In this document: positions 2,130 to 54,538 of the stretch, piece after piece
Layout: each line of letters begins with the position of its first letter
Position numbering within the stretch: the stretch's first letter is position 1
Origin: Aigarchaeota archaeon
GTDB taxonomy: Archaea; Thermoproteota; Nitrososphaeria_A; Caldarchaeales; Wolframiiraptoraceae
NCBI GenBank assembly: GCA_025059205.1
Contig: JANXDS010000001.1
Coordinates: 76,014-140,013 of the forward strand
DNA length: 64,000 nucleotides
Reading direction: 5' to 3'
Made by a program: the position numbers and the translations under genes
The notes under the pieces: generated by a model
What the model was told of the DNA's origin: nothing
What the model saw: the letters and a program-made list of their open reading frames with translations, nothing else
The model's database searches: none

Positions 2130-2153
2130 ATAACGCTTGCTCGGTGTCTGACG

Positions 2154-6393: not shown

Positions 6394-6570
6394 AGGCTCT
6401 TACGAAATGTTTTTATAATATAGGAGTGTATTATTCTAGCTCGAAGCGTGAGGGTGATAATGAGGCGCCAAGTCCTCTAAACAAGGGCGGGTATGTTCTC
6501 GCCCAGTATCTACCCTCCAGTATCGATACCCTCTTTTCATCCCTAAACTTTCTATGCGTGGTGAAGGTAT

Positions 6571-20556: not shown

Positions 20557-21524
20557 CAGATGCTTATGTCTATCCTTGCTACGGCTTTTGAACGTAGGAT
20601 ATCCATACCTATTCGCTCACTCGCCATGATGCCGTAGACTTCGTCCTTCATCGTCTCGTAGCTGCTTATTGTTAAATCTCGTCTAAGGAGCAGCACACCA
20701 GCCGCCTTCCTATCTATAACGAACGCCTTGTTATCTGGGACCGAGCCGCTATTGTCAACTATTAGTTCTAGGCCTAAGAAGTTGCCAAGCACGCCCCTCT
20801 GCTTATCAACGGCATCGCCGAAGTAAAAGCTGTGTATAAACCTGTCATCCTTCCAAAGGTCGGCCTCCCTAGACACGCTGACCAGCAGGCAGTCTGGATG
20901 GAACATCTCCTTTAGCACAGCCTTCCTCGCGTTGACAACGTCCTCGTAACTAAGCCTTCCGACGTTGATAGTAGTAATCTCCGAACCTCCAGCGAGTTCG
21001 TCTTCGGGTATCCGCAAGAACATTCCTATAACCTCTTCCGTCTCTAGTAGACCGACTGCTCTGCCAAGCTCCGCAGCCTGTCTTTCTAACACGCTCCACG
21101 GCGCATCTTCAAGAAACTTCCTCGTCCACTCGGCAGCCGCCCTTATCTCTAAGTCGGCCTTAACGTCTTGAACCTCATATTTCTCACCGGTAATCCAAAC
21201 CTGAGCCAGTTCCGCACTCCTATAAGCCCTCGCCTTCTTTGCCTTGGGGAACCTCACAACTGGGTCCGACGTTCTTATAACCTGAACTAGTCGCCTCGCT
21301 ATCAAGTTAGGCTGGGCCGCCTCGACTACTACGTCGTGCATTCTTGCTACTGCACCTAGCATACTGCTCGTTATCGACTCATAGCCAGACGGGAATAGCT
21401 CCGATATGCGTGCGAACACTGGGTTCGTCGAGAACTTTGGCAAGAGTTCGTTGAGTTCATCCCTAACCCTAGGGTCGCTGTAGAGAACCTCAAACCTTTT
21501 TGGCATTACGTCCTGCCAGCTCAT
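20556..21524 (-). CDS. HK97-fold major capsid protein-like (phage MCP / encapsulin superfamily)
   Basis: 322 aa. The C-terminal ~50 aa (AFVIDRKAAGVLLLRRDLTISSYETMKDEVYGIMASERIG) follows the hallmark pattern of HK97-fold shell proteins as recalled from T. maritima encapsulin and phage MCPs. Decoration-like, portal-like and protease-like neighbours support the call. Confidence 0.5.
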   Translation of the reverse strand: MSWQDVMPKRFEVLYSDPRVRDELNELLPKFSTNPVFARISELFPSGYESITSSMLGAVARMHDVVVEAAQPNLIARRLVQVIRTSDPVVRFPKAKKARAYRSAELAQVWITGEKYEVQDVKADLEIRAAAEWTRKFLEDAPWSVLERQAAELGRAVGLLETEEVIGMFLRIPEDELAGGSEITTINVGRLSYEDVVNARKAVLKEMFHPDCLLVSVSREADLWKDDRFIHSFYFGDAVDKQRGVLGNFLGLELIVDNSGSVPDNKAFVIDRKAAGVLLLRRDLTISSYETMKDEVYGIMASERIGMDILRSKAVARIDISI

Positions 21525-37865: not shown

Positions 37866-38981
37866 ATGAGTACGAAACGAGAGTCGCCAGAATACGTAAG
37901 AATAAGTCTTGCTGCGGCCATGACCCTGGGTCTGGTAAATGGTGCATTCTTTAGGAATGCGACCCTATATTGCGTTAACCTTCTCTTAACGTACGACAGT
38001 GGTTGCGTAGGAAGGTGTGCTTACTGCGGACTTTCCAGAAGTAGGAAGCTAGAGAAGGTTTGGACCGACTATAGCTTCATACGTGTTGACTGGCCGACGG
38101 TTAGCCTAGACGAGGTCCTTGAAAGGATAGATTCGTGCCCATATGTCGAAAGGGTTTGCGTATCGATGGTAACAAACCGCAAAGCACCTGAGGATTGTCT
38201 AACTATCGTCAGGAGGTTACGCGAAAGGACGGACTCGATATCCAGTCTGATAACGCCGACGATAATAGACCGTAGCTGGCTCGAGGAGTTAAAGAGGGTA
38301 GGGGCCGACAAAGTAGGTATAGCGATAGATGCTGCTACGCCGGAGCTTTTTGACAAGTTAAGGGGCAAAGGGGTTAATGGTCCCCATCGTTGGGAGAAAT
38401 ACTGGAATACGGTCGAAGAGGCTATAGAGGTATTCGGCAAGTACAATGTTGGTATTCACTTGATAGTCGGCCTTGGTGAGACTGAGGAAGAGATGGTTAG
38501 GTGCATACAAACGGCTTATGATATTGGTGCGCTAACGCATCTGTTCTCATTCTTCCCAGAAGAGGGCTCAGCTATGGAGAAAAGCTCCCAACCTCCGATC
38601 GGACAGTATAGGCGTGTGCAGCTCGCCCGCTACTTGATTAACAAAGGTCTAACGGTCGTTGACAATATGCGTTTTGACAATTCCGGAAGATTGATAGATT
38701 TTGGTCTAGAAAAAGATGTACTCGATGAAGTGATAGAAAGTGGACTTCCTTTCATGACATCAGGATGTGCCAGTAAGAAAAGAGATAACGCGTGCAACAG
38801 GCCCTTCTCGGATTATACGCCGTACCATGCTCTAATAGGTGAAATAAGAAATTATCCATTCGTACCAACAAAGGAGGATATCAAGCTGATAAGAAGACAG
38901 TTGCAGGACTACTCCAACATTCCGGTTAAAGTATGGGTAGAAGGACTGGAAGGTCTATCGGGATGTGCTGAACATATCTAG
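37866..38981 (+). CDS. radical SAM protein, candidate alternative lipoyl synthase subunit (LipS-type) of the sLpl/LipS/LipT module
   Basis: CVGRCAYC CX3CX2C motif. It lies 47 bp after hypD, immediately before a second radical SAM gene and a lipoate-protein ligase gene. The family call is by gene-neighbourhood signature, not by alignment. Confidence 0.5.
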   Translation: MSTKRESPEYVRISLAAAMTLGLVNGAFFRNATLYCVNLLLTYDSGCVGRCAYCGLSRSRKLEKVWTDYSFIRVDWPTVSLDEVLERIDSCPYVERVCVSMVTNRKAPEDCLTIVRRLRERTDSISSLITPTIIDRSWLEELKRVGADKVGIAIDAATPELFDKLRGKGVNGPHRWEKYWNTVEEAIEVFGKYNVGIHLIVGLGETEEEMVRCIQTAYDIGALTHLFSFFPEEGSAMEKSSQPPIGQYRRVQLARYLINKGLTVVDNMRFDNSGRLIDFGLEKDVLDEVIESGLPFMTSGCASKKRDNACNRPFSDYTPYHALIGEIRNYPFVPTKEDIKLIRRQLQDYSNIPVKVWVEGLEGLSGCAEHI

Positions 38982-39010
38982 GCTAAGCTAACGGTGTCAT
39001 CGGTGGTTTT

Positions 39011-40003
<993 letters not shown>

Positions 40004-40007
40004 TGTA

Positions 40008-41597
40008 ATGCGTCAGTGGAGACTTATTGACACGGGCCTAAGGCCAGCGTCCGAGAACATGGCTCTTGACGACGTGATTTTAGAGTGCAAAGCTAGGAAT
40101 TTAGTGCCCGATACCGTAAGGTTTCTTAGGTTCAGTCCACCAGCGGCTCTCGTTGGGTATCACCAAGATGTCGAACAAGAGGTTCGACTGGAGTACGCGA
40201 AGGAGAACGGAATAGACGTTAACAGGAGGTTAACGGGAGGTGGTGCTATCTACTTTGACAGCTCTACCGTCGGGTGGGAGGTTATAGCATCAAAGTACTC
40301 GTTCACAAATTACTCTTTAGAATGGATTTTTAAGACTATGTGCGAATGTGTGGTAAACGCCCTAAAAGAGTTTGGTTTAGATGCTCGCTTTCGACCTAGG
40401 AATGACATAGAGATAGATGGTAGGAAAATATCAGGCACGGGCGGTGTTGAGAGGGAAGGTGCCTTTCTCTTCCAAGGTACGCTCCTTGTAGACTTTGACA
40501 TCGAAACGATGATAAAGGTGTTAAAGATTCCGATAATAAAACTTAAGGATAAAGAATTGGAATCGGTGAGGAAAAGGGTAACCTGCCTTAAGTGGGAATT
40601 GGGCTATGTTCCGGATTATGAGGAAATCAGGAGTGCATTAATCAGAGGTTTCGAGAAAACTCTCAACATAGAACTCAAATCCGGCGAACTCACAGATCAC
40701 GAATTAGAGGTCTTTGAAAAAAGATTGACATGGTTTAAATCCGAAGAATGGATATTCATGGACAGGTGTTCATCAAAAGGATCTGCGATGGTGCACGCGG
40801 TTGATAAGAAGCCAGGTGGTGTTATCCGTGTATCGTTGAATGTGGATAAAGATGCGAATGTCATAAAAAGCGTGTTAGTAACAGGGGATTTTTTCATATT
40901 CCCCCAAAGAGCGATCTTGGATTTGGAAGCCGCCCTTAAGTTCGTTCCAGTGGATGCTGATAAGATAAGGGAGATAGTTCACAAGGTATTCGAGGAAAAA
41001 CAAGTTAGGGCACTCAGCATAACTGAAGACGACATAGTGGAGCTTATACTCGAGGCCTTAGAAAAAACCGAGCTTGAATCTTATGGTATAGATTACAACG
41101 AAGTTAATAACGTATACCCGATAACAAATGATATCGATTCAACACTCAAGAACGGCTTTGACTATATGTTACTACCTTACTGTTCCAAGATGGTTTCATG
41201 CACGTATAGGAGAACGGACGGTTGTGCAAAATGTGGTAGGTGCACGGTTGGCGATGCATATCGTTTAGCAGAGGAATTCGGTCTAAAACCTATAACGATT
41301 CATAACTTTGAACACCTGATAGAAGTTTTGAAGACTATGAGGACCGAAGGTGCAAGAGGCTTTATTGGTTGTTGCTGCGAGGCATTCTACGTAAAACACC
41401 GAGACGAGATGAGAAACGTGGGCGTGCCAGGGATAATAATAGATATTGAGGATAAAACCTGCTACGATCTGGGCAAGGCAGAAGAAGCTTATAGGGGTGT
41501 TTTCGAGGCCCAGACCAAGTTAAACCTAGAGCTTTTAAAGAAGGTACTGTTGACGTCCTTGAAAATGGGTGGTGTAAAGTGCATAGATTCGACGTGA
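40008..41597 (+). CDS. lipoate-protein ligase (LplA-type catalytic domain) with a ~170-aa cysteine-rich C-terminal extension
   Basis: N-terminal BPL/LPL catalytic domain (RFLRFSPPAALVGYHQ...RRLTGGGAIYFD). The C-terminus carries CTYRRTDGCAKCGRC and GFIGCCCEAF motifs. 529 aa is well above typical LplA size. Confidence 0.7.
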   Translation: MRQWRLIDTGLRPASENMALDDVILECKARNLVPDTVRFLRFSPPAALVGYHQDVEQEVRLEYAKENGIDVNRRLTGGGAIYFDSSTVGWEVIASKYSFTNYSLEWIFKTMCECVVNALKEFGLDARFRPRNDIEIDGRKISGTGGVEREGAFLFQGTLLVDFDIETMIKVLKIPIIKLKDKELESVRKRVTCLKWELGYVPDYEEIRSALIRGFEKTLNIELKSGELTDHELEVFEKRLTWFKSEEWIFMDRCSSKGSAMVHAVDKKPGGVIRVSLNVDKDANVIKSVLVTGDFFIFPQRAILDLEAALKFVPVDADKIREIVHKVFEEKQVRALSITEDDIVELILEALEKTELESYGIDYNEVNNVYPITNDIDSTLKNGFDYMLLPYCSKMVSCTYRRTDGCAKCGRCTVGDAYRLAEEFGLKPITIHNFEHLIEVLKTMRTEGARGFIGCCCEAFYVKHRDEMRNVGVPGIIIDIEDKTCYDLGKAEEAYRGVFEAQTKLNLELLKKVLLTSLKMGGVKCIDST

Positions 41598-42643
41598 TAG
41601 TGGTTGGCGGCGGCCCTTCTGGTGCCGTATGTGCAATAAAATGCGCTAAGATGGGTTTTAGGACAATGTTGTTAGAAAAATCGACGAGTTACAGAAAGAA
41701 GGTCTGCGGAGGCATCACACCGACTATAACAAAAGATTTACTAGAACTTGAGTTAGGGCTAAGCATTCCCAAGTCGGTGCTATCTGTACCGGAAAGATTA
41801 GGGCTTTTCTACGTACCGCCCAGTGGTAAGCACAACGGTGGTACGATGAGAAATTATTCATTAATTAATTTATGCAGGGTTGCCTTCGATGAATGGTTGA
41901 GAGAAGAAGCCAGTATGCATAACGTTCATCTTTTGTACCGAGCAGAATTTAATGCGCTGAAGCTAGGGAAGCATAGCGTATTGAAGGTAAGAGTGAATGG
42001 TAACCTAGAGTTCTTTGAAGCTACTTACGTGGTTGGCGCCGACGGTGCTTTTTCAAAAGTTCGTTCTTGCTTATTTCCAAACTATAAGCTCAGAATGCTT
42101 ACGGTCATACAAGAAGTCTGGGATGCTGAAGGCGATTTTCAAGATAATTTTTACGTAATCCTCAACGGCAAAATCGTACCGACTTATGGTTACGTAATTC
42201 CCAAGGACGAAAATTTTCTCATAGGATTTGGTTTTGAAAGCGGAGCGGCCGACCCAAAGTTTTACAGAGATGGGCTTTTGGGTTTATTAAAAGACGAGTT
42301 CTCATTTAAGCCTATAAAAATGAATGTAAGAGAAGTCGCGCCCATCCCATTTGCCCTATCACCTTTAGGACTAGGGAATGTTGTACTTGTTGGTGATGCT
42401 GGAGGCTTATGTAATCCTTTCTCAGGGGAGGGCATAAGGTTCGCGATCGAGAGCGGGGCTATCGCGGCAGAGTCCATTAAAATCTCACATGAAGAGGATG
42501 CAAATTTGATAACCATCTATGAATCGAGGATGGAGTGGTTGAAGGAGTTTTTACTTAAAATGCATACATTCGTAAGCGAGCTTGACGATGAGAAAAGAGA
42601 AGCTTTCGTCAAGGAAGAACTGTCGCGTCTTAACGTATTTTAG
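41579..42643 (+). CDS. FAD-dependent geranylgeranyl-reductase-family oxidoreductase (LipT-like member of the lipoate assembly module)
   Basis: FAD motif VIVVGGGPSGAVCA and a GGR-like length of 354 aa. It overlaps the ligase gene by 19 nt. Confidence 0.6.
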   Translation: MHRFDVIVVGGGPSGAVCAIKCAKMGFRTMLLEKSTSYRKKVCGGITPTITKDLLELELGLSIPKSVLSVPERLGLFYVPPSGKHNGGTMRNYSLINLCRVAFDEWLREEASMHNVHLLYRAEFNALKLGKHSVLKVRVNGNLEFFEATYVVGADGAFSKVRSCLFPNYKLRMLTVIQEVWDAEGDFQDNFYVILNGKIVPTYGYVIPKDENFLIGFGFESGAADPKFYRDGLLGLLKDEFSFKPIKMNVREVAPIPFALSPLGLGNVVLVGDAGGLCNPFSGEGIRFAIESGAIAAESIKISHEEDANLITIYESRMEWLKEFLLKMHTFVSELDDEKREAFVKEELSRLNVF

Positions 42644-43848: not shown

Positions 43849-44922
43849 ATGCGCCCACAACTCCGTAAAGTCATAAGGTTGGGTAGGTCTGCTCTAGCCG
43901 TGACGTTACCTAAAGAGTGGACGTCCTTGGTTAAGCTAAAAGAGGGCGACTACGTTCTCATAGAGGATATCGAAGAAAACTGTATCAGAATGAAGAAAGC
44001 TGATAGTGAGTCTGAGACTCCGCCCGCCGTCTGTGTAATTAACGCGGATATTTGCACCTCACAAAATATGCTATGGAGGATTATAATCGGTGCGTATATG
44101 GTCGGTCACAAAACCATTTGGATACAGACGAAGAATAGTTTTAAACCTAGCGATATTGAAGGGATAAGGACTCTAACGGATATATTAGTAGGACTTCACG
44201 TAACAGAGCAGACCGATAACATAATCATACTTCAAAGTCTTGCTGACCCTTCCAGACCTACGATTGATAGCTCTATCCGTAGACTCCATTTAATGTCTTC
44301 TAGCATGTACGATATGGCGTTAGGTGTCCTTTTAGGTGAAGAGAATCCAAAACGGCTTGAAGATATCAAGGCGCTTGAGATAGAGTGCGATAAAGTTTAC
44401 TGGCTTGTAACAAGACAACTGCTCCTGTCAGTGAACGATCGGGCCTTAGCAAAGGAGCTTGGTATAAGGTCTAACCTTTGGCTTTTAGGAAATAGGGCGG
44501 TCGTCAGGATTTTGAAGAGTATAGTTACAGACAGTAAGTACATATCCAGATATGTCGAAAATTTGCTGAAGCTTGATTATAAGCTTGACACAGAGACCAT
44601 CCGTTGGTTTGCCAACATACGCGACGAGGTTAGAAAGATATCAAACATGGCAGTCGATTCTCTTATTACAAGAGACTTGCTGAGCGGCAATGATGCTATT
44701 GAATCCGCTAACAAGCTTGTGAAGACTCTTGAGGCGGCGGAGATGGTGGCTCCAAAAAAATATGACGTTAACGTTTGTCCGTCCCTATCGGGTATACTCA
44801 GGTCTTTAAGAAACATCGTTCTAAACTACAGATACATAGGAGAAGTTGCGATCAACAGATCGGTTGAGGAATCCAACGAGTACGTGAGCATAGATACCGG
44901 CAGTTTTGAGGATAAAGTCTGA
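43849..44922 (+). CDS. AbrB/SpoVT-like N-terminal domain fused to PhoU-like helical domains (archaeal PhoU-type regulator)
   Basis: The N-terminal VIRLGRSALAVTLPKEW...GDYVLIE swapped-hairpin motif is followed by ~250 aa of helical repeats. A paralog lies at 46629. Confidence 0.5.
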   Translation: MRPQLRKVIRLGRSALAVTLPKEWTSLVKLKEGDYVLIEDIEENCIRMKKADSESETPPAVCVINADICTSQNMLWRIIIGAYMVGHKTIWIQTKNSFKPSDIEGIRTLTDILVGLHVTEQTDNIIILQSLADPSRPTIDSSIRRLHLMSSSMYDMALGVLLGEENPKRLEDIKALEIECDKVYWLVTRQLLLSVNDRALAKELGIRSNLWLLGNRAVVRILKSIVTDSKYISRYVENLLKLDYKLDTETIRWFANIRDEVRKISNMAVDSLITRDLLSGNDAIESANKLVKTLEAAEMVAPKKYDVNVCPSLSGILRSLRNIVLNYRYIGEVAINRSVEESNEYVSIDTGSFEDKV

Positions 44923-45503
44923 ACACATACTTAAAAAGGAATCAAAACTTTAATGAACGATGAAACTAGGTCAAACACTTTAACTTTTTAACGTAAGACT
45001 ACAATGGGATCGTTCCACGGGTGCCGAGGCCTTCACTAAAGGAGGTAGTGTTCGTCTGGACATGCCTAGGACTTCGGTGGTTTAGGAAGATATCCGTGTC
45101 CGGATGAGGTATTCCTTTCTGCATTAGGTGGGTGCATGATAACTACGTTCGTTTACTTTCAGCGACGATTGGGCACAAAGATAGAAGGGGTTAGAGGTTG
45201 ACGTTAAAGGAAAAGTTAAACTGGATAACGGGAGGTATAGGGTCACCGATGCAAGAATTAAATTAAAGGCTTTAGTAGGAGACTCGGAGTTTGAGAACGT
45301 TACGGGTTGTGCGAAATTAGCTATCGAACACTGTCGCATAACTAAGTCCATAAAACCATCCATCGCTTTAAATGTAGAGTACGAAGTCGTTAACCTAGGC
45401 AATCCCTAAAGCGCGAACTATTTTAAAAAATTTAAAAGAAATATTTTTAAAAATGCTTATCTGTAATTTTGTAATTAAATTTGAGGAAAAGGGTGTGGTG
45501 GCC

Positions 45504-45932
45504 ATGGTGAAGCTATTCGATAAGTACGAGTTTCCAGAAGGTTTGTACTACTCCAAAGATCATCTATGGTTAAAGCTCGAGGGCGACCTTGTGAGGGTTG
45601 GTGTTACAGACTTAGCACAGCAAGCGGCTGGCCCAATAGTATACGTAAGAGTCGTACCAAAGGGTAAGGTTATAGAGGCGGGGAAGCCCATAGCGACCGT
45701 AGAAACCGGAAAATGGGTTGGATCTTTCAAGTCTCCCGTGTCTGGAACGATAGTCGAGGTTAATGAAGCCTTGAAGTCTCAGCCTAAACTTCTGAACGAA
45801 GACCCATATGGGAAAGGGTGGTTAGCTCTCATAAAACCTTCAAAGCTTGAGGAGGAGTTGAAAGGTTTATTCTCAAAAATTGAAGATATGATTCCGTGGC
45901 TAAAAGACGAGATGCCGAAGATGATCAAATAG
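45504..45932 (+). CDS. GcvH-like lipoyl-carrier protein (LbpA-like); start moved to MVKLFDK
   Basis: GcvH fold. The lipoyl-lysine sits in ETGKWVGSFKSPVSG exactly 8 residues before the conserved SPVSG proline, as in E. coli GcvH. A poly-T terminator follows the gene. No gcvT or gcvP lies nearby. Confidence 0.8.
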   Translation: MVKLFDKYEFPEGLYYSKDHLWLKLEGDLVRVGVTDLAQQAAGPIVYVRVVPKGKVIEAGKPIATVETGKWVGSFKSPVSGTIVEVNEALKSQPKLLNEDPYGKGWLALIKPSKLEEELKGLFSKIEDMIPWLKDEMPKMIK

Positions 45933-46091
45933 TTAGCTCAAAGCTACATAGCATTAAAGAGTTAGCTAATAATACATACTTTAAACCTACTTTTTCGTTT
46001 TTTATTAAGGGTCCTAGCGCTCAGGTCTAAACTCTTTAACGCACAAATTTTTACAACAGCATTTAGTGATACAGCCGTCAGTCCGTCCACG

Positions 46092-46499
46092 CTACTCTGG
46101 TAACTTTAACTCAACTAAATATTTTATGTCTTCTTCGTAGTTAATCGGCCTAAACACCGCGATCCATCCCTCGCCGTAAGGATCTTCGTTTATAAGGTCA
46201 GGCTTTTCTCTTAACTTCTCGTTAACTTCAACTATCCAGCCGGACACTGGGCTTCTTAGAAGCATCACACGCGTTCCATACTCTACGGAGCCGAAAGGAT
46301 GCCCCCTGCTGATCAGACGTCCCTTGGGAAGGACTCTAACAAACTCTATCGTGCCCATATGCTCTGCGATACTCTCCACAAGACCGACGCGTACAAATAT
46401 CTCAGAATTCTCGCTCATTTGTTCAAACCTTGCCCATATCCCACGACTAAGCTTTGAAACGAATAGTTTTCCTAAGAGCTCAGGAACATACATTTCCAT
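46092..46499 (-). CDS. GcvH-like paralog apparently lacking the lipoyl-lysine (Thr at the canonical position)
   Basis: GcvH fold (SPVSGWIVEVNEKL...NEDPYGEGWI). The position 8 residues upstream of the SPVSG proline is T in SVEYGTRVMLLRSPVSG. Confidence 0.65.
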   Translation of the reverse strand: MEMYVPELLGKLFVSKLSRGIWARFEQMSENSEIFVRVGLVESIAEHMGTIEFVRVLPKGRLISRGHPFGSVEYGTRVMLLRSPVSGWIVEVNEKLREKPDLINEDPYGEGWIAVFRPINYEEDIKYLVELKLPE

Positions 46500-46628
46500 T
46501 TTTCTTAAGCCACCTCAAAATGAGGCTAGTTATAGCACGATATTGCTCATAACGTGTTGTTTCATATAACTGGTAAATATTACGTATACGTTACACATAA
46601 ATACCAGACGTAAAATTTTTACACGGAA

Positions 46629-47720
46629 TTGGGCACAGAAAGTAGCCGCTTATACGGTTATACATTAAGAAAAGTAATGAAGCTCGGACGATCTGCGTTA
46701 TGCGTTACGTTGCCGAAAGCCTGGGTTGCCGCCGTTGGGATAAAGGAGAATGATTACTTAGCCGTAAGACAAACCGGCAACTCTTTAGAATTAAGCAAAG
46801 TTGAACGGGAAGAAGGAGTTGGGTCGCCGGTTTGTATAATAAATGTGGACGCATGCATAGAGCCCCATTCTATAACTAGAGTTTTGATAGGAGCTTACAT
46901 AGCCGGCCATGATACGATCTGGTTACAATCCAAAAGACCTTTTACGCAAAAACAAATTGAAGAAGTTAATTCGGTGACGAGGAAGCTTATCGGAGTGCAC
47001 ATCGCAGATAGCTCCGAAAATATAATAATTATTCAGAACCTCTCAAATCCCCTAAGGCCTTCCATGGACAGTTCTATCAGAAGGTTTCATAACCTAGTAA
47101 TGGACATGCTTGAAGGTGCCGTGAGTATGCTCTCAAGTGGCAATCAAGATATGATTAAGCGTATTATGAGTATAGGTGAAGAGTGTGACAGGCTTTATTG
47201 GTTAACGTTGAGGCAACTTATAAGAGCAGCCAGCGACCCTGGCGTAAGGGAAGCTCTCGGAATAAAATCAACCCTATGGTTGCTTGGCAACCGATTGGTC
47301 CTGGTTTTACTCAAGAAGGCTGTCAACCTGAGCGAATTGATTGCTCTTTCAGCATACGAAATATTTACGAACGGGTGCGGAATTGAGAAGCGTATTACAG
47401 AGTGGTGCGCGGATTTCTGTACAACACTAAAGCACATCTCTCAAAATACGATAGATTCCCTCATGTCGAAGGATCTTTTGCTGGCAAATAAAACAATATC
47501 CCAGATCGACAACTTGATTGGAGAGAGAATAGAGGCCGGCGAAAAAATGGCCAGCAGTAGTAGATCACTCAGACATCATCTCTTCCGAATAATATATGCT
47601 TTTAAGGAAATTGGTTTGTGCTACCGTCAGATCGCAGAGGTGGCGATAAATAGGTCCCTAGAAGAATCCGGAAAATTCGTTACGATCGAATGTCCACCCA
47701 AGAATTCGGAGGAAGGTTAA
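46629..47720 (+). CDS. AbrB/SpoVT-like + PhoU-like regulator, paralog of 43849..44922
   Basis: N-terminal VMKLGRSALCVTLPKAW...NDYLAV followed by a PhoU-like helical region. It is divergent from the second gcvH-like gene. Confidence 0.5.
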   Translation: MGTESSRLYGYTLRKVMKLGRSALCVTLPKAWVAAVGIKENDYLAVRQTGNSLELSKVEREEGVGSPVCIINVDACIEPHSITRVLIGAYIAGHDTIWLQSKRPFTQKQIEEVNSVTRKLIGVHIADSSENIIIIQNLSNPLRPSMDSSIRRFHNLVMDMLEGAVSMLSSGNQDMIKRIMSIGEECDRLYWLTLRQLIRAASDPGVREALGIKSTLWLLGNRLVLVLLKKAVNLSELIALSAYEIFTNGCGIEKRITEWCADFCTTLKHISQNTIDSLMSKDLLLANKTISQIDNLIGERIEAGEKMASSSRSLRHHLFRIIYAFKEIGLCYRQIAEVAINRSLEESGKFVTIECPPKNSEEG

Positions 47721-47907: not shown

Positions 47908-48378
47908 CTAAAGCTTAATCTCTTCTTCAATCATCTCGATGCATTTTGGTACGGCAGCTTTTACCTCTTCACTCAGCCCCTCTTGATAGCAGCTTGGTTT
48001 TTGGATGGTTATTCCAAAAATCACTACCTCGTCCGGAAAAGATTCTCTATCGATAGTTTTAACGAGTTCGACAGAGGTTACGAAGTCCATATCATGAAGG
48101 CCGATGAATCTTTTCGACGCCCTCCTTAGGTCTTCGAGGGTTAGTCTTATTATTTTTCCAGGAGCTACGCCCTCTTCAACTAAAGCATCTACGATTATTG
48201 CTTTCTTATAACCAAGCATTGTTTCCGCCGCGGTTAAACCTCCGGCACTCAACTCGACAACATCAACAGACTCGCCTAACCTCTTTCTTAACTCGGATAC
48301 GATAATCAAGCCTAAGGCATCGTCACCAAGTATCGGATTACCAAGCCCTATTACAACTATGCCGCTTTTCTTCTTCAA
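47908..48378 (-). CDS. hycI: hydrogenase maturation endopeptidase (HycI/FrhD family)
   Basis: 156 aa with N-terminal GLGNPILGDDALG. It is last in the mvh operon and overlaps mvhA by 4 nt. Confidence 0.8.
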   Translation of the reverse strand: MKKKSGIVVIGLGNPILGDDALGLIIVSELRKRLGESVDVVELSAGGLTAAETMLGYKKAIIVDALVEEGVAPGKIIRLTLEDLRRASKRFIGLHDMDFVTSVELVKTIDRESFPDEVVIFGITIQKPSCYQEGLSEEVKAAVPKCIEMIEEEIKL

Positions 48379-49835
48379 GGACGCTTTATCTCAACCAAAA
48401 GTTTTCCATTCGCATCGTATATGCAGACGTCAAGCGGCATTTGTCCTGGCAAAGCATGTGTTCCACAAGCCAAGCATGGGTCATAAGCCCTGAATGCCAT
48501 CTCTATCATGTTGAGCAGACCGTCGCTTATATTGCCGCCTTTTATGAGTTGCTGCGAGGCCTTCTTTACGGACATACATATACCTGCATTGTTGTGTGTC
48601 GTCGCGACTATTAGGTTAACGTCGGTCAGTATACCGCCCTGGTCCGTCTTATAATGGTGTATGAGCGTACCCCTCGGCGCCTCAACGATGCCGACACCTT
48701 CGTCAGGGGTGTTTGTTAGAGGAACCCTAAAGTCCTTCCCGGTTATATCCGCATCTTTACTCAATTCAAGGGTTCTTTCAGCGGCGTTAAGTATCTCTAT
48801 GACCCTCGCCCAATGGTATCCGAGCGTTGCATGAGCTGGCTTACCCAAGGTTTCTTTGAACTTTTCATAGGCTTCCTGCGCATAGGGTGTCGTAAACCCT
48901 TCGGCCACGTTGAGTCTGGCAAGGGGGCCTACTCTGTACGCGCCTGATGCTTCACCATCGACTATTCCCTTCCAGCCCAGTTCCTTCAAGTACGGGAACT
49001 TGAGATAAGTCCACGTCTCCACATGCTCGCCTATGTATTTAAGATAGTCTTTTGGATGAAATTCCGCGTAGATTCTTCCTTTCGGATCCACGACTCTGAC
49101 TTTTCCGTCATAGTAATTAACCAGCCCCTTTTCATCGACCAAACCCATATAGTAAGTCTCATGCTTGTATACATCGCCCATGAGTAAGTCAAGGTATTTT
49201 TGATTTTTCAGAACTACGTCCTCGAAAATCTTTAGTGTAAATTGGGCGAACTCCACCAGTTTCTTTGCACCTTCTTCTATTTCCTTTCTGTCATCTTCTG
49301 TCAAAGATTTGGAGACACCACCCGGAACAGCACAAGTCGGTATTATTGCTCTTCCGGCAAGTTTCTCCAGGAGCTTCGTTGCCACCATCCTGGCGTTTAT
49401 GACTCTCTTTCCAGTTTCCAGTCCAACCTTTCCAATAAGACCAAGAATGTTCCTTTCAGCCCTCGGTGCATCAGGTCCAACTACGAAGTCCGGCGCGGAA
49501 AGTGTGTAGAATACTGCCGAATGGTCGTGTATGTAGAATATATTATAGGCCAATTCCCTTATCTTCTTCGCAGTTTCCGGCAACTCGGCTCCGTAGACGG
49601 CATCCACGGCCTTAGCCGATGCCATGTGATGTGCCCATGGACAGACGCCGCAGATCCTTGAGGTTATTATAGGCATTTCCTCGACAGGTCTCCCTATACA
49701 GAACTTCTCGAAGCCCCTGAACTCAACTACCTGATAGTAGGCGTCCTTAACGTTGCCGGCTTCGTCTAAAAATATCGAAATCTTACCGTGCCCCTCAAGC
49801 CTAGTTATTGGCTGAATTGTTACGACTTTCTTCAT
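48375..49835 (-). CDS. mvhA: [NiFe] hydrogenase large subunit, MvhA-type (group 3c)
   Basis: N-terminal RICGVCPWAH (L1) and C-terminal DPCLACGTH (L2) Ni-binding motifs. Size 486 aa. Confidence 0.9.
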   Translation of the reverse strand: MKKVVTIQPITRLEGHGKISIFLDEAGNVKDAYYQVVEFRGFEKFCIGRPVEEMPIITSRICGVCPWAHHMASAKAVDAVYGAELPETAKKIRELAYNIFYIHDHSAVFYTLSAPDFVVGPDAPRAERNILGLIGKVGLETGKRVINARMVATKLLEKLAGRAIIPTCAVPGGVSKSLTEDDRKEIEEGAKKLVEFAQFTLKIFEDVVLKNQKYLDLLMGDVYKHETYYMGLVDEKGLVNYYDGKVRVVDPKGRIYAEFHPKDYLKYIGEHVETWTYLKFPYLKELGWKGIVDGEASGAYRVGPLARLNVAEGFTTPYAQEAYEKFKETLGKPAHATLGYHWARVIEILNAAERTLELSKDADITGKDFRVPLTNTPDEGVGIVEAPRGTLIHHYKTDQGGILTDVNLIVATTHNNAGICMSVKKASQQLIKGGNISDGLLNMIEMAFRAYDPCLACGTHALPGQMPLDVCIYDANGKLLVEIKRP

Positions 49836-50809
49836 TCTCTAACACCCCATACCCTACGCATGATTGATTTTGGCAAAGTGTATCTGTAAAACGTCCCTAA
49901 CGGGTCCTTTATCTGCAGTACAAGTTTTCTAACGTCCTCATCACTTACACCCGCCTCACCTTCTAGGCCTATCACGGAAGATAAGGCAGATAGCATCCTG
50001 GCGCCCTGATCGCGGGACTCTGATGTCGGTCCCATACAACCCCTGCAGGGAATGTTCACAGTCGGACATATCGCGTCGCAACCACCTCTGGTTGCAGGGC
50101 CCATGCAAACTATACCTTGCTCAAGAAGACACTTTTCGGCATCCGGAACAATCTGATGGTAACGTTTTATCTCAGTTATTCTTTTATTCTCACGGATACG
50201 CTTACAATCATCGCAGACAGACTTCATCGAACCGAATACTGTGCCCTTTGGTGGAAGTTTTCCGGAAAGTGCAGCGACCAGCGCGTCAGCCGTTAATTTG
50301 AGTGGTGGTGGACAGCCTGGCAAATAATAATCCACTTTGACCACTTGATCGAGTGATTTGACAGTCTCAAGGAGTTCTGGTACTGTTAACTCTCCACCGT
50401 CAACCTTCGTTATTTTATACGGCACGATTCCTTGCTGGTTTACGGTGCTTAAACTCTTTATGTATGCCTTTTGAAGGATACTGTCCCGTGAGGCGACGTT
50501 TGCGAGACCGGGTATACCGCCGAAGCAAGCGCACGCTCCAAATGCTATTAGATTCTTTGCCTTTTTCCTCGCAAGTTTAGCCATCTCTTCCGTCTCGTCG
50601 TTGTTCACGGCACCTTCAAAGAGCACTATATCTATTGAACCGTCCGGTAGTTTCTCCAAGTCCTCCAACTTTAAGTCTGCGGCCGTCGGCCAGTAAGCTA
50701 TTTCCGTAGCTATTAGAACATCAATTATCTTTTCGCCCAAGTCCAGGAGTGAATAATCGCAGCCAGCGCAGTTCGCTCCGGGTATTATGGCCAGCTTTGG
50801 TTTACTCAA
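49832..50809 (-). CDS. mvhG: [NiFe] hydrogenase small subunit MvhG; start corrected to TTG (MSKPKLAIIPGANCAGCD) preceded by GGAGGTGG
   Basis: The small-subunit N-terminal Cys motif CAGCD. The TTG start overlaps the mvhD stop (TTGA). The longer 365-aa ORF in the track would overlap mvhD by 124 nt. Confidence 0.8.
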   Translation of the reverse strand: MSKPKLAIIPGANCAGCDYSLLDLGEKIIDVLIATEIAYWPTAADLKLEDLEKLPDGSIDIVLFEGAVNNDETEEMAKLARKKAKNLIAFGACACFGGIPGLANVASRDSILQKAYIKSLSTVNQQGIVPYKITKVDGGELTVPELLETVKSLDQVVKVDYYLPGCPPPLKLTADALVAALSGKLPPKGTVFGSMKSVCDDCKRIRENKRITEIKRYHQIVPDAEKCLLEQGIVCMGPATRGGCDAICPTVNIPCRGCMGPTSESRDQGARMLSALSSVIGLEGEAGVSDEDVRKLVLQIKDPLGTFYRYTLPKSIMRRVWGVRE

Positions 50810-51246
50810 ACTACTGCCACCTCCTTCCTCAGTTTTTCTGCGATGCGGTTTGGTCCTAGTTTCCTTATCTGTTCGACAAATTCTTTCGCGATGTTGGCAA
50901 ACCTTTCTCCTTCCGATGCGGAAACCCATTCTAACCTTAATCTTTCTTTTTCAACACCAAACTGTTCAAGTAACCTCTCCAAAAGCATAATCCTCCTTCT
51001 GGTCTTGTAGTTTCCAGATATGTAATGACAATCGCCAGGATGACAACCAGTAACGAGAACACCATCCGCACCGTTTGCAAAAGCCTCGAGTATGTGTACT
51101 GGGTTGATTCTACCGGAACACATTACTCTTATTACTTTAAGGTTATGGGGGTACTGTAGTCGGCTGGTTCCGGCCAGGTCCATTCCAGCGTAGGAGCACC
51201 AGTTACATGCAAAAACCAATATGTTTGGCTCAAAATCCTTTTCCAT
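50806..51246 (-). CDS. mvhD: methyl-viologen-reducing hydrogenase delta subunit MvhD
   Basis: 146 aa, N-terminal ILVFACNWCSY with a [2Fe-2S]-type Cys pattern, between hdrA and mvhG. Confidence 0.85.
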   Translation of the reverse strand: MEKDFEPNILVFACNWCSYAGMDLAGTSRLQYPHNLKVIRVMCSGRINPVHILEAFANGADGVLVTGCHPGDCHYISGNYKTRRRIMLLERLLEQFGVEKERLRLEWVSASEGERFANIAKEFVEQIRKLGPNRIAEKLRKEVAVV

Positions 51247-51252
51247 TTTAAC

Positions 51253-53232
51253 TCACCCCGTAAGCGTTCTTACCATTGCAGAAATCTGTTCGTCATCAAA
51301 CCCGAGTTGTTGGGCTGCTCCAGATGGACATGCAGCTACACATACTCCGCAGCCCTTGCACTTGCTTATGTCGACCTTTGCTACCTGCTTCCCGTCTTCC
51401 TTCTTAACCAGTGATATTGCGTCAAAAGCGCATAGGGGTTGGCATATGCCACAACCGCTGCACAAGTCTTCGTTAATCGAGGATACATAAGGTATAGTTT
51501 CTACGTAGCCCCTCGACATCAGCGCTATGGCCGAAGACGCTGCAGCACCTGCTTGAGCTACTGTATCAGGTATATCCTTTGGTCCTTGTACTGCACCGGC
51601 CAAGAATACGCCATCAACGGACGTCTCAGTAGGTCTGAGCTTTGGATGCAACTCTAACGCAAAACCATCTGGGCCCACCGAACACTTTAGCACCTTGGCA
51701 ACTTCTTTAAATGTTGGATGAGGAACTATGCCCGTCTCAAGGACGATGAGATCTGGTCTAAGTGTTACAACCCTATTTGTGTTCGCATCGAATACGTCGA
51801 AGTAGAGGCTTCCATCAGCATCTTGTAATATTTCCATCGGGCTACCTCTTATGAACTTGACGTTTTCGTAACTTCTAATCCTCTCGTAGAACTCTTCGTA
51901 ACCTTTCCCGAAGGTTCTGATGTCCCTATAACATATGTATACTTCCGCATCCGGTATGTGGCTCACTATGTAGTAAGCGTGCTTCAATCCTGCAACGCAC
52001 CCGAACCTGCAGCAGAACCTTAGATGCTTTTCGTCCCTCGAACCGACGCAGAGGATTATAGCAACCTTTTTCGGCTCTTTTCCGTCGCTAGGTCTGAGTA
52101 TGTGCCCCTTCGTCGGTCCTGTGGCAGAAACAAGCCTCTCCAGTTCCAACCCAGTTATTACGTCCTTGTACTTACGATAACCATATTCTGGCATATTCTT
52201 TGCAACATCGTACAAACCGTATCCAGTAGCCAAGATTATTGCCCCAACTTCAAGCTCTATCTCTTCTGGTTTCTGGTCGAAGTTTATGGCTTTGGGAGGA
52301 CAGAATTTCTCACAGGCTCTACACGTCCCTTTCTGGAAATACATACAATGCTCAGGATCGATTACGGGAATAAGCGGGACCGCTTGCGGAAATTCAAAGT
52401 ATATTGCCTTTCTCTTTCCAAGTCCCAAGTCGAACTCGCTCGGCACGGTCCATGGACATTTTGTGACACAAACACCGCAACCGGTACATTTTGCCTCATT
52501 AACATACCTTGGTTTCTTCAGCAGTTTAACTTTAAAGTTTCCGACAGAACCGTCAATACTTACAACGTCTGTATAGGTGTGGAGGGTTATATTTGGATGT
52601 CTGCTCGCTTCTACCATAAGAGGTGTCAGTATGCACTGAGAGCAGTCGAGTGTCGGAAACGTCTTATCTAACCTAGCCATGTTTCCCCCTATGCTGGGTC
52701 TTGTCTCGACTAAGTGGACTTCGAAACCGGCGTTTGCTATATCAAGCGAAGCTCTGATGCCTGCTATCCCACCACCTATAACCAGCGCCCTCGGTATTAC
52801 CTTGACCTTTTCTACCTTCAATGGTTTTAACAACCTGGCTTTGGCGACTGCAGCTTTAACTATTTTAATGGCTTTTTCCGTCGCTGCAGATTTTTCCTTC
52901 TCGTGAACCCAAGAACAGTGTTCCCTTATATTAGCCATCTCGAAGAGATATGGATTAAGACCCCCCCTCTCAACAGCCCTCTGAAATGTAGGTTCGTGCA
53001 TTCTCGGCGAGCAGGCAGCTACGACGACCCTGTTAAGTTTGTGTTCCTTTATATCCTCTACTATTATATTCTGGCCCGGTTGAGAACACATGAACTGATA
53101 ATCTTTCGCAACCACGACGTTAGGTACTTTTGATAATTCTTCAGCCACTTTCTTTACGTCAACCACGGCTGCTATGTTAACGCCGCAGTGGCATACGTAA
53201 ACACCTATTCTAATCTCTTCGCCTTCAACCAT
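51253..53232 (-). CDS. hdrA: heterodisulfide reductase subunit A (FAD, multiple 4Fe-4S)
   Basis: 659 aa with N-terminal GVYVCHCG, the FAD motif LVIGGGIAGIRA and several CxxCxxCxxxCP ferredoxin motifs. Confidence 0.9.
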   Translation of the reverse strand: MVEGEEIRIGVYVCHCGVNIAAVVDVKKVAEELSKVPNVVVAKDYQFMCSQPGQNIIVEDIKEHKLNRVVVAACSPRMHEPTFQRAVERGGLNPYLFEMANIREHCSWVHEKEKSAATEKAIKIVKAAVAKARLLKPLKVEKVKVIPRALVIGGGIAGIRASLDIANAGFEVHLVETRPSIGGNMARLDKTFPTLDCSQCILTPLMVEASRHPNITLHTYTDVVSIDGSVGNFKVKLLKKPRYVNEAKCTGCGVCVTKCPWTVPSEFDLGLGKRKAIYFEFPQAVPLIPVIDPEHCMYFQKGTCRACEKFCPPKAINFDQKPEEIELEVGAIILATGYGLYDVAKNMPEYGYRKYKDVITGLELERLVSATGPTKGHILRPSDGKEPKKVAIILCVGSRDEKHLRFCCRFGCVAGLKHAYYIVSHIPDAEVYICYRDIRTFGKGYEEFYERIRSYENVKFIRGSPMEILQDADGSLYFDVFDANTNRVVTLRPDLIVLETGIVPHPTFKEVAKVLKCSVGPDGFALELHPKLRPTETSVDGVFLAGAVQGPKDIPDTVAQAGAAASSAIALMSRGYVETIPYVSSINEDLCSGCGICQPLCAFDAISLVKKEDGKQVAKVDISKCKGCGVCVAACPSGAAQQLGFDDEQISAMVRTLTG

Positions 53233-54107
53233 TAGACCCTCATCTCCTCGAGTAAAACTTCGACCGGACTCATGTTCAAGTTCATCCCCAGCTCCTTCTC
53301 GTCTAAGCCTAATGCAAGACCCAACAACTGCGTATAGTAAAGCGCTGGGATCGAAACGCTTTGGTCGCCGGTTATCGTTTTAGCAGCATCTTGCTTTCCG
53401 TCGAGCATTTCTATACAATACGGACACAGGCTAGTTATAGCCCTCGAACCCACAGCCAGTGCCTTTTTTATCCTAGAGGCCGTAACCCTTATCGCCGCCT
53501 CAGGCGAATAAGGAAGTATGGCTGCCCCACAACATTCATACTTTTCGGGATAATCTCTCGCCCTAAGGCCTATGGCCTCGATCAACCTATCCAACTTAAG
53601 TGGACCATTTCTTGTCTCTGGCCTCGGGAACTCCGTCGGTCTAATCAGATGACAGCCAGGATGAGAAGAAACCGGCATTTCCGGTAGCTTCCTCTTTATC
53701 GCAGATGTTATCTTTTCAACACCTATCTTGTCGTGCAAAACTTCTACCGGATGATAAACCGTTGCTTTGCCTGTGTATCTTAACCCTTCCTCTCTAAGAA
53801 GCTCGTTCACAGCATTCATAAGTGGCGGATTCAACTTTAACTTGTAGATCGTTTCCGTTAGGTTTAGGTGGCAACCGTTACATGGTGAGACGATATCCAA
53901 ACCTTGCGACTCGGCTATCGCCATGATCCTTGCGCACGCATAATATGGGTAGAACCTACTTATCCCCTTCATAGGAACTCCGCAACAATTCATATCCTTA
54001 GGGTATTCCAACTCTACACCTAATAGTGGTAAAGTGCCCCTCAACGATAACTCATAACCGTACTGTTTCGTCGCGGTGGTGCAACCTAAATAAAGTAGAA
54101 ACCTCAT
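53232..54107 (-). CDS. hdrB: heterodisulfide reductase subunit B (two CCG domains)
   Basis: CCGVP and CCGAA Cys-rich CCG-domain motifs. Size 291 aa. Confidence 0.9.
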   Translation of the reverse strand: MRFLLYLGCTTATKQYGYELSLRGTLPLLGVELEYPKDMNCCGVPMKGISRFYPYYACARIMAIAESQGLDIVSPCNGCHLNLTETIYKLKLNPPLMNAVNELLREEGLRYTGKATVYHPVEVLHDKIGVEKITSAIKRKLPEMPVSSHPGCHLIRPTEFPRPETRNGPLKLDRLIEAIGLRARDYPEKYECCGAAILPYSPEAAIRVTASRIKKALAVGSRAITSLCPYCIEMLDGKQDAAKTITGDQSVSIPALYYTQLLGLALGLDEKELGMNLNMSPVEVLLEEMRV

Positions 54108-54109
54108 AC

Positions 54110-54538
54110 CTAAATAGCCCCCTTCAACCTTTCAAACCCTATTAGCAGTACGTGTTGCCTGAACTTCTCGATATCTTTCGGTTTTGGCATCTCGGGTAGG
54201 CCCAGTTCCGTCCTAGAAACTTCCTCAAAATCCTTTGACATTATATACGTAGGTTCTTGAATGTGGCCGACCTTCAATATGGATTTTGCCATTTCAACGA
54301 AGGATTTCGGAGGCGCTATCCCTCTTTCGATAGCCTCGTTTCTAAGTGACATAACTACCTCAAACGGCGAAACTCGTTGGGGACAGTATTCTACGCACTT
54401 TAAGCAAACCGAACATGCCCATATCACATCGCTATTTATAAGCTCATCAGAATAGCCTGCCTTTACTAGGGCCACGATTTCGTGGGGTCTGTACTTATTG
54501 ACGACTTTTGTGGCTGTACATCCGCTAGAGCACTTCAT
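54110..54538 (-). CDS. hdrC: heterodisulfide reductase subunit C (short form)
   Basis: 142 aa with the ferredoxin-type motif CSVCLKCVEYCP plus N-terminal Cys residues. It is first in the hdrCBA-mvhDGA operon. Confidence 0.78.
   Translation of the reverse strand: MKCSSGCTATKVVNKYRPHEIVALVKAGYSDELINSDVIWACSVCLKCVEYCPQRVSPFEVVMSLRNEAIERGIAPPKSFVEMAKSILKVGHIQEPTYIMSKDFEEVSRTELGLPEMPKPKDIEKFRQHVLLIGFERLKGAI

Follow-up and report, generated by a model that had tools for sequence, protein, structure and literature searches.

How does a protein with the fold of a lipoyl carrier come to be kept in a genome when it lacks the lysine to which lipoate is attached, and what might it do there? The question is raised by a pair of adjacent GcvH-like genes in a 64,000-nucleotide stretch of an Aigarchaeota archaeon genome (assembly GCA_025059205.1, contig JANXDS010000001.1), here called the window. 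We refer to the Lys-less paralog at 46092–46499 as GcvH2 and to the neighbouring lipoylatable paralog as GcvH1. A first-pass annotation, made from the sequence letters, had noticed a threonine in place of the lipoyl-lysine in GcvH2 and had offered a decoy, a scaffold or a carrier of some other modification as possible roles. It gave no strand for GcvH2; the open reading frame (ORF) is on the minus strand.

An H-protein fold without the lipoyl-lysine

The two paralogs are as follows.

46092–46499, minus strand: GcvH2, Lys-less GcvH-fold protein (‘type A’, defined below), 135 amino acids (aa), ATG start
45504–45932 (longest ORF from 45453), plus strand: GcvH1, lipoylatable paralog, 142 aa, with Lys70 in ETGKWVG, convergent to GcvH2

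First, GcvH2 has the fold. Both proteins match the Pfam family GCV_H (PF01597), with E = 1.2e-24 for GcvH2 and 1.7e-37 for GcvH1. GcvH1 also passes the NCBIfam model NF002270 (PRK01202) with 133 bits against a cut-off of 117, and GcvH2 stays well under the GcvH cut-offs (TIGR00527, 68.2 vs 115.85 bits; NF002270, 76 vs 117 bits). The translation of GcvH2, which begins MEMYVPELLGK, gave an AlphaFold2 model with a mean predicted local distance difference test score (pLDDT) of 91.1 and a predicted template-modelling score (pTM) of 0.84, and the top 21 Foldseek matches to this model are all H-proteins, with template-modelling (TM) scores of 0.71–0.84.

Second, the attachment lysine is gone. The canonical lipoyl-lysine forms the tip of a β-hairpin, 8 residues before the Pro of PVSG. 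The two hairpin segments that the first-pass annotation had compared are present in the translations: SVEYGTRVMLLRSPVSG in GcvH2 and ETGKWVGSFKSPVSG in the neighbouring ORF (45453/45504–45932, plus strand). Gapless phmmer alignments to the solved H-proteins of pea (1dxm/1hpc), Thermus (1onl) and Thermotoga (2ka7) place Thr76 of GcvH2 on the lipoyl-lysine column (FGSVEYG-T-RVMLLRSPVSG in GcvH2 vs FGAVESV-K-ATSDVNSPISG in a solved H-protein), and the same placement is obtained from a MAFFT alignment with E. coli GcvH and 27 homologues and from a column read-out of 254 domains based on a hidden Markov model (HMM). The Thr76 codon at 46272–46274 reads cgt on the plus strand, with reverse complement ACG, and is flanked by the codons of Gly75 (46275–46277) and Arg77 (46269–46271). 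In the AlphaFold2 model the hairpin consists of strands 68–74 and 77–82, with Gly75–Thr76 at the tip. The translation has no Lys in residues 60–94, hence none in the hairpin, and therefore no other register can supply a hairpin Lys; a lysine merely shifted in register was rejected on this ground. Nor does the translation contain a Cys anywhere in its 135 aa.

The substitution was therefore read correctly in the first-pass annotation: pairwise, multiple and HMM alignments all leave the hairpin tip without a lysine. Its description of GcvH2 as a GcvH-fold protein that is not lipoylatable at the canonical site, encoded alongside a lipoylatable paralog, likewise holds. That the threonine is a misalignment or the ORF not a gene is practically ruled out by the gapless alignments to solved H-proteins, and contradicted by the hairpin geometry of the model, purifying selection on the orthologs and the identical sequence in two assemblies. 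As far as is known, lipoate ligases are strict about lysine position. On the evidence of sequence and model, GcvH2 is a real and intact gene for an H-protein fold minus the lipoyl-lysine, predicted to be incapable of carrying lipoate.

A conserved clade has lost the lysine

A search of 5.8 billion proteins returned a protein identical to GcvH2 in the Nitrososphaerota/Aigarchaeota metagenome-assembled genome (MAG) GCA_033581195.1 and about 14 more ortholog clusters with 42–75% identity. Their hosts are thermophilic Nitrososphaerota (Caldarchaeales/Aigarchaeota and relatives of Ca. Terraquivivens). The family is small, since 1.84 billion representatives, searched exhaustively with the profile, gave only 4 matches below 1e-30.

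We define this clade, type A, by the motif G-[HY]-P-F-G-S-x-E-x-G-x-[RK]-x-x-L-L-R-x-P with a non-Lys attachment site, together with an N-terminal insertion and the absence of the C-terminal helix extension. GcvH2 fits the sequence definition. Across 15 type A sequences, with identity down to 42%, 27 columns are invariant, and GcvH2 carries all 27 of these residues. They cluster at and around the hairpin (EF-R-LP...G-PFGS-E...LLR-PV-G), which has been remodelled and is itself strongly conserved (GHPFGS-E-G-x-R-xx-LLR-PVSG). The attachment column holds T, M, V or R, and never Lys, in all of the roughly 15 clusters. The next residue is Arg in the clade (Arg77 in GcvH2) and Lys in P0015; a positive charge at this position is common to both Lys-less types that we distinguish below (R; K in P0015 and in GcvH122 of locus L001), whereas the Lys-bearing relatives have Trp. 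His67, Arg55 and Arg82, around the hairpin, are also newly conserved in the clade.

Conservation of the residue, which the first-pass annotation had proposed to check, therefore has two answers: the threonine itself is not conserved, and the absence of Lys is, in every clade member, so that the change from K to T is neither chance nor private to this genome. A different modification at the threonine position is unlikely, because the residue varies among T, M, V and R and the protein has no Cys.

Compared with Lys-bearing relatives of the ‘GKWVG’ type, to which they are 44–45% identical, type A proteins have gained a 5–6 residue insertion near the N-terminus, lost the C-terminal helix extension and acquired a new hairpin. 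Judged from shared indels, motifs and identities, on which we base the relationships among GcvH types, type A proteins derive from ‘GKWVG’-type lipoyl carriers of the kind represented by GcvH1.

The ratio of non-synonymous to synonymous substitution rates (dN/dS, Nei–Gojobori) is 0.10–0.18 between GcvH2 and its relatives and 0.11–0.20 among the relatives, at a dS from GcvH2 to relatives of about 1.0–1.3, which is near saturation. GcvH2 has 4 private substitutions, all conservative and none at a clade-invariant column, and its relative rate is not raised in comparison with neighbouring genes. These comparisons indicate that the loss of the lysine in type A is an old, family-wide and selected state and not a recent lesion. 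A recent inactivating mutation in a decaying gene was rejected on four counts: the clade-wide loss, the conserved hairpin, the dN/dS of 0.1–0.2 and the intact invariant columns.

GlcD-like and HdrD-like partners in relatives

Twelve loci were retrieved through GcvH2 orthologs (L001–L010, L021 and L022), and one from Nitrososphaerales (L015) through its GlcD gene. In 12/12 ortholog-retrieved loci, a GlcD-like gene lies immediately downstream of the Lys-less GcvH, and an HdrD-like gene comes third wherever the contig reaches that far (incomplete contigs were checked by BLASTP). L015 has the same layout of regulator, Lys-less GcvH, GlcD-like and HdrD-like genes, and the divergent regulator, an AbrB/MazE–PhoU protein, is found beside the Lys-less GcvH in L001–L010, L015, L021 and L022. 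The GlcD-like partner (475–480 aa; 475 aa in L001, hence GlcD475) has FAD_binding_4 and FAD-oxidase_C domains and is nearest to LctD (7qh2_C, E = 6e-31) and TIGR00387 glcD. The HdrD-like partner (389–394 aa; 389 aa in L001, hence HdrD389) combines Fer4_8 with two CCG domains, has two [4Fe-4S] motifs and is nearest to TfrB, LdhH, GlpC and GlcF. All family scores of GlcD475 and HdrD389 are under the cut-offs. In these relatives, the Lys-less protein would be the dedicated small partner of a flavin adenine dinucleotide (FAD)-dependent 2-hydroxyacid dehydrogenase of GlcD/LctD type and of an HdrD/TfrB-like protein.

The near relatives of the window locus are Ca. Terraquivivens species. Their loci also encode a Lys-bearing GcvH142 (convergent; 89% identical to GcvH1 in L001) with OsmC, a second AbrB–PhoU regulator, the lipoate genes LipS2–LipS1–LplA/B-DUF116–LipT, Mvh–HdrABC, and a block of NarI-like, HdrD405, GcvH122, unk281 and CCG411 genes. 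A second Lys-less type, ‘type B’, is represented by GcvH122 (IEHGRKILILRSP; 50% identical to type A). Type B proteins have 122–137 aa with RK or RR at the former Lys site (L001 4428–8775; L018 4880–9520) and sit in a module of NarI/HdrE-like protein, HdrD-like protein, GcvH, a 281-aa protein without a Pfam or NCBIfam match, and a CCG protein; a distant GcvH122 ortholog, P0094, lies in the same kind of membrane HdrD-like module. Lys is found at +1 in some type B relatives and at the canonical column in P0100, so the attachment column is variable across the wider family. Types A and B both lie beside HdrD-like genes, and the HdrD-like CCG protein is therefore the common neighbour of the family. 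In the Logan assembly L007, the type B block (4554–6775) is split into many short ORFs, which suggests pseudogenisation or assembly errors.

The regulator is retained in the window, divergent to GcvH2.

46629–47720, plus strand: AbrB/MazE(SpoVT)–PhoU-domain regulator, divergent to GcvH2, 82% identical to its L001 ortholog
46500–46628, no strand: intergenic region between GcvH2 and the regulator, with a Shine–Dalgarno-like GAGGTGG 11 nt before the ATG and the palindrome ACGTATACGT

This intergenic region aligns well with those of L001, L007 and L008. The palindrome, perfect over 10 bp at 46582–46591, recurs unchanged in L001 and L008 and with a single mismatch in L007, which makes it a candidate operator; the window holds no second copy, so that no regulon can be defined from it.

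Fusions in Anaerolineae and the polarity of the change

The profile search also found a single chain that unites these components. P0095 (MFQ6102322.1; 1391 aa; gene at L020 3234–7409), from Anaerolineae, contains in order three GCV_H domains, FAD_binding_4, FAD-oxidase_C, Fer4_8 and two CCG domains. It belongs with P0373–P0383, among them P0382, a natural fusion of 1042 aa, to an Anaerolineae family of such proteins (950–1400 aa); a follow-up search gave 12 fusion clusters (NCBI and JGI) with 1–3 Lys-less GcvH domains each. Archaeal GlcD475 (31% identity, E = 6e-70) and HdrD389 (34% identity, E = 1e-82) align colinearly with the fusion, whose gene neighbours are a PAS/GAF histidine kinase, a response regulator and a UbiA prenyltransferase. 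Of the six fusion hairpins read, one contains a lysine, displaced by one residue from the canonical register. With about 47 bits each to the type A profile, the fusion GcvH domains are divergent, and the lysine was therefore probably lost in them independently of the archaeal loss.

Arrangements in three MAGs bear on the direction of the change. A Geothermarchaeales MAG retains the Lys (MESAKWVGP) in the gene that immediately precedes GlcD–HdrD. An Anaerolineales MAG has LplA, a radical SAM gene, GlcD and HdrD in an uninterrupted row, and a Lys-bearing GcvH close by. The operon of Lys-less GcvH, GlcD and HdrD in a Nitrososphaerales MAG continues directly into LipS2–LipS1–LplA/B–LipT. The simplest reading of these arrangements is that a lipoyl carrier ancestrally served the GlcD/HdrD enzyme and that one lineage turned a copy of it cofactor-less.

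Additional Lys-less GcvH-like classes occur among P0055, P0060–P0093 (about 204 aa) and P0099, P0101, P0136 and P0150. In one, from Desulfobacterota/Syntrophobacterales, the Lys column holds Gly and the protein is extended at its C-terminus. The other, ‘TWMF’, includes tandem-domain proteins whose N-termini by eye resemble ribbon-helix-helix domains.

The window has lost the partners

GlcD and HdrD genes, which follow GcvH directly in type A loci, do not follow GcvH2 in the window. The site at which they would lie, and the features next to it, are listed here.

45933–46091, no strand: deletion junction, a 159-bp spacer where relatives have about 2.6 kb (GlcD-like, 475 aa; HdrD-like, 389 aa)
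44953–45394, plus strand: OsmC pseudogene, in which homology to the 151-aa OsmC of relatives alternates frames, with three frameshifts
43849–44922, plus strand: second AbrB–PhoU regulator, paralog of 46629–47720, which heads the OsmC–GcvH1 unit in relatives

When all L001 proteins were searched against the 64-kb window by tblastn, GlcD475, HdrD389, the NarI-like protein, HdrD405, unk281 and CCG411 had no match, and all other L001 proteins had orthologs there. Sensitive blastn and tblastn searches of the spacer detected no remnants of GlcD or HdrD, and the identical junction is present in an independent Logan contig (L012). Among 191 GlcD homologues from the search of 5.8 billion proteins, none was an ortholog assignable to the window assembly, only relatives’ contigs being represented, and a scan of genome contigs with a single protein matched only two Terraquivivens species. 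The genes flanking the OsmC pseudogene are all intact. Read from gene content and synteny, GcvH2 is an intact orphan in an eroding island from which its partners have been deleted. Decay of the gene, which the first-pass annotation had named as an outcome that would undo its proposal, thus applies to the neighbourhood, with deleted partners and a broken OsmC, and not to GcvH2 itself.

What remains around the GcvH pair is a lipoate assembly cluster and a hydrogenase–heterodisulfide reductase cluster.

37866–38981, plus strand: LipS2, lipoate assembly of the sLpl(AB)/LipS1/LipS2 type
39011–40003, plus strand: LipS1, lipoate assembly
40008–41597, plus strand: LplA/B ligase fused to DUF116 (LplA-B_cat and Lip_prot_lig_C, with C-terminal DUF116)
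41579–42643, plus strand: geranylgeranyl-reductase-like FAD protein (LipT-like), lipoate assembly
47908–54538, minus strand: Mvh–Hdr cluster of HycI maturation protease, MvhA, MvhG, MvhD, HdrA, HdrB and HdrC

The sLpl(AB)/LipS1/LipS2 pathway of lipoate assembly has been described (PMC10332631); the LplA/B–DUF116 fusion, which is absent from the text of that paper, is kept in Terraquivivens and Nitrososphaerales relatives (L001, L015). The Mvh–HdrABC cluster is about 1.4 kb from GcvH2, which bears out the earlier placement of GcvH2 beside Hdr, although the usual partners of the family are GlcD-like and HdrD-like proteins and not HdrABC. HdrB is the sole CCG-domain protein found in the window.

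Possible roles of GcvH2

We consider it somewhat more probable than all other readings together that GcvH2 is a former lipoyl carrier turned into a non-lipoylated docking or structural subunit of a GlcD/HdrD-type oxidoreductase. We favour this reading, a form of the scaffold among the options first proposed, because the orthologs are always co-operonic with GlcD-like and HdrD-like genes and because the parts are fused in Anaerolineae. A substrate carrier would have given up its cofactor and become a fixed module with a docking or structural role, and a module of this type may bind the HdrD-like CCG subunit through the face of the former lipoyl hairpin. Lipoylated GcvH1 would be the mobile dithiol/disulfide carrier, which in relatives may feed the peroxidase OsmC; the part of the literature that PMC10332631 cites on this point (Cussiol 2010, Nyvltova 2016) describes OsmC/Ohr proteins as lipoyl-dependent peroxidases. 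Lipoyl-GcvH1 is also a candidate disulfide substrate of the Hdr encoded in the window. Any function left to GcvH2 in the window genome would involve HdrB/HdrC, the lipoate machinery or the regulator, HdrB/HdrC of the adjacent Mvh–Hdr complex being the sole CCG-type candidate partner found in the window.

Several points weigh against the docking-subunit reading. First, the contact between GcvH2 and its partners is deduced from operon and fusion linkage. Second, the fusions support the linkage and not a shared mechanism, as their GcvH domains are divergent and probably lost the lysine separately. Third, CCG proteins of the GlpC, LldE and YdiJ type are not all thiol/disulfide enzymes, and a lipoyl-disulfide route is thus an assumption. 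Fourth, GcvH2 persists without GlcD and HdrD, and so either has another role or is a relic that has yet to decay, and pairwise dN/dS at a near-saturated dS cannot resolve the period after the deletion. Fifth, the window genome is a MAG, and GlcD and HdrD genes could lie on an unrecovered contig.

Two alternatives keep a low probability, roughly one chance in six each. According to the first, GcvH2 is a competitive decoy or negative regulator that would contend with lipoyl-GcvH1 for a shared docking site (an HdrB/HdrD-like CCG site, the lipoate ligase or LipS1/LipS2) and thereby throttle flux. The adjoining lipoylatable paralog of the same subfamily (41–44% identity) suits such a role, as does the hairpin, the docking element of lipoyl domains, in being the most conserved part of the protein. 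So do the retention of GcvH2 with GcvH1, the lipoate assembly genes and HdrABC after the loss of GlcD and HdrD, and its possession of its own regulator and a conserved operator-like palindrome. A decoy, however, would not be expected always to come first in a GlcD–HdrD operon, an arrangement that suggests stoichiometric co-expression, and a hairpin sequence so unlike the one in GcvH1 speaks against simple mimicry. The decoy put forward in the first-pass annotation is also hard to square with the Anaerolineae proteins, in which the enzyme itself carries one to three copies in the same chain; an inhibitor attached for good in this way is implausible.

According to the second, which concerns the window genome, GcvH2 worked only with GlcD and HdrD and is now functionless, with disabling mutations yet to come. 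The partners are missing at the syntenic site and throughout the 64-kb window, no GlcD homologue is attributable to the assembly, and the erosion of the island appears to be ongoing: the adjacent OsmC is broken by three frameshifts, and the type B block is gone from the window and fragmented in L007. The saturated dS also weakens the power of dN/dS to detect a recent relaxation. Against a relic, the ORF is intact, the Shine–Dalgarno and operator region is conserved, the 27 clade-invariant columns show no change beside 4 conservative private changes, and the rate is not above that of neighbouring genes. A rough estimate can be made from OsmC, which has 3 indels in 456 bp: over an equally long neutral period, the 408 bp of GcvH2 should have gathered about 2.7 indels, and the probability of seeing none would be about 0.07.

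We think it quite improbable that GcvH2 is another kind of carrier, with a putative non-covalent ligand (for example, free lipoate or dihydrolipoate, bound by its carboxylate to Arg77) or a modification elsewhere. The positive charge conserved after the former Lys in both Lys-less types, where Lys-bearing relatives have Trp, and the newly conserved His67, Arg55 and Arg82 around the hairpin would fit a ligand, and the apparent ribbon-helix-helix N-termini of some Lys-less GcvH domains (P0101, by eye) hint at ligand sensing. A conserved modification at the former Lys position is ruled out by the variability of the residue itself, GcvH2 has no Cys, and its neighbourhood, unlike that of GcvH-L (see below), contains no modifying enzyme of sirtuin or macrodomain type.

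Extending the docking-subunit reading from GcvH2 to the family, we tentatively propose, as a possibility well short of even odds, that Lys-less GcvH modules are obligatory parts of an undescribed class of GlcD-like/HdrD-like ‘2-hydroxyacid : lipoyl-protein (disulfide) oxidoreductase’, encoded as an operon in thermophilic Nitrososphaerota or as a fused chain in Anaerolineae, with the former carrier acting as a cofactor-less docking domain or binding free lipoate through Arg77. If this were true, Hdr-type CCG chemistry would be tied to lipoyl-protein redox cycling outside sulfur oxidation, H2 or a hydroxyacid would reduce lipoyl-GcvH and then OsmC, and the orphan in the window would point to a second partner, such as HdrBC of Mvh–Hdr. 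To our knowledge, lipoate is used in a handful of enzyme systems, to which sHdr/LbpA was the latest addition, in 2018.

The value of the locus lies mainly in the family-level association, the window copy being an orphan of uncertain activity: a conserved family with the H-protein fold and no cofactor, still under selection, is wired by operon or fusion to a flavin/CCG iron–sulfur enzyme that sits among lipoate assembly, OsmC and Hdr genes. Should the partnership prove to be physical, it would offer a testable handle on the roles of HdrD-like CCG proteins in non-methanogenic archaea, it would represent a substrate carrier that has become a pseudo-carrier subunit (compare BADC and BCCP, below), and the window genome would be a natural deletion variant in which to look for an enzyme-independent role of GcvH2.

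Comparison with known systems

GcvH2 shares with GcvH the fold (TM scores of 0.76–0.83 to 1onl, 3a8i and 1htp by Foldseek) and the motifs PVSG-x-V-EVN and DPYGEGW. It differs in having Thr76 for the lipoyl-Lys, in its scores below the family cut-offs, in a 5–6 residue insertion before the first long strand and in lacking the C-terminal helix extension.

In the sHdr system of sulfur oxidation, lipoate is bound by LbpA (Cao et al. 2018, PMC6067878; Tanabe et al. 2023, PMC10332631). A strictly conserved Lys is found in all 95 LbpAs, and in most of them, with some archaeal exceptions, two Cys towards the N- and C-termini are conserved as well (PMC6067878). GcvH2 resembles LbpA in being GcvH-like and encoded with Hdr-type CCG proteins and sLpl(AB)–LipS1/LipS2–LipT genes, and it is GcvH1 that fits the LbpA picture; GcvH2 has neither the conserved Lys nor either of the two Cys. 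Moreover, the Hdr of the window is Mvh–HdrABC and not sHdr (hdrC1B1A-hyp-hdrC2B2) with dsrE/tusA, and the usual partners of the GcvH2 family are GlcD-like and HdrD-like proteins. Because the lysine that defines both GcvH and LbpA was looked for and is absent, we regard GcvH2 as functionally neither of these, on sequence grounds, and as a member of the GCV_H fold family.

The closest analogy concerns a different cofactor. In plants, BADC, reportedly described by Salie et al. in 2016 (Plant Cell), is said to be a BCCP-like protein that lacks the biotinyl-Lys and inhibits acetyl-CoA carboxylase. By analogy, GcvH2 may likewise be a conserved carrier paralog minus the attachment Lys that still engages the parent enzyme system. 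The differences are that BADC belongs to another family, biotinyl and not lipoyl, and that BADC is a competing inhibitor, whereas operon and fusion data favour an integral subunit in the case of GcvH2.

GcvH-L of Streptococcus pyogenes and Staphylococcus aureus (5a35) keeps the Lys, is lipoylated and is encoded with SirTM and a macrodomain protein (PMC12440151). It is a GcvH paralog outside glycine cleavage, as GcvH2 probably is too, with a link to oxidative-stress defence, and it is a weak structural match to GcvH2 (TMt 0.81); the Lys, its lipoylation and the adjacent SirTM and macrodomain genes set it apart. Curated GcvH homologues outside glycine cleavage also include TIGR03077 ‘not_gcvH’ (Chlamydia) and NF045810 ‘GcvH-related protein’ (Desulfobacterota), to which GcvH2 scores 47.5 against a cut-off of 144.05 and 32.5 against 150, respectively. 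The Desulfobacterota proteins of about 204 aa similarly have no Lys in register, but their hairpin (QGR) and C-terminal extension are unlike those of GcvH2.

The nearest known relatives of the missing partners are GlcDEF, LctD (7qh2_C), E. coli YdiJ (NF049975) and TfrB, from 2-hydroxyacid dehydrogenases that pair an FAD-linked oxidase with CCG iron–sulfur proteins. We know of no GcvH-like subunit or domain in enzymes of these types. Our literature search returned no paper that links a Lys-less GcvH to GlcD/HdrD or treats lipoate/Hdr in Aigarchaeota; the LbpA papers do not mention Lys-less paralogs, GlcD, HdrD or DUF116, and the Wolframiiraptor/Terraquivivens paper is silent on Hdr, Mvh, lipoate and glycine cleavage.

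Other genes in the window

A second, canonical lipoate module lies at the start of the window (23–2825, plus strand). It comprises LipA, cut by the window edge (PRK05481, 319 bits), dihydrolipoyl dehydrogenase (Lpd, 726–2129; TIGR01350, 522 bits, above the cut-off) and LipB (TIGR00214, 172 bits). Together with the genes at 37866–42643, this module implies that the genome has both the LipB/LipA and the sLpl(AB)/LipS1/LipS2 routes. No gcvP or gcvT was found among the scanned window ORFs of at least 120 aa, and no DsrE or TusA among the scanned window ORFs.

A near-complete hydrogenase maturation set (HypB, HypA, HypD, HypE, HypF and HycI) extends over 33564–57065, its genes interspersed with those for lipoate assembly, the GcvH pair and Mvh–HdrABC in a non-methanogenic archaeon.

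Finally, an ORF of 144 aa without an NCBIfam match lies beside an ORF of 322 aa (20556–21524, minus strand) that has a weak, sub-threshold match to NF042927 (HK97-fold major capsid protein; E = 4e-6) and could encode an encapsulin shell or be a provirus remnant.

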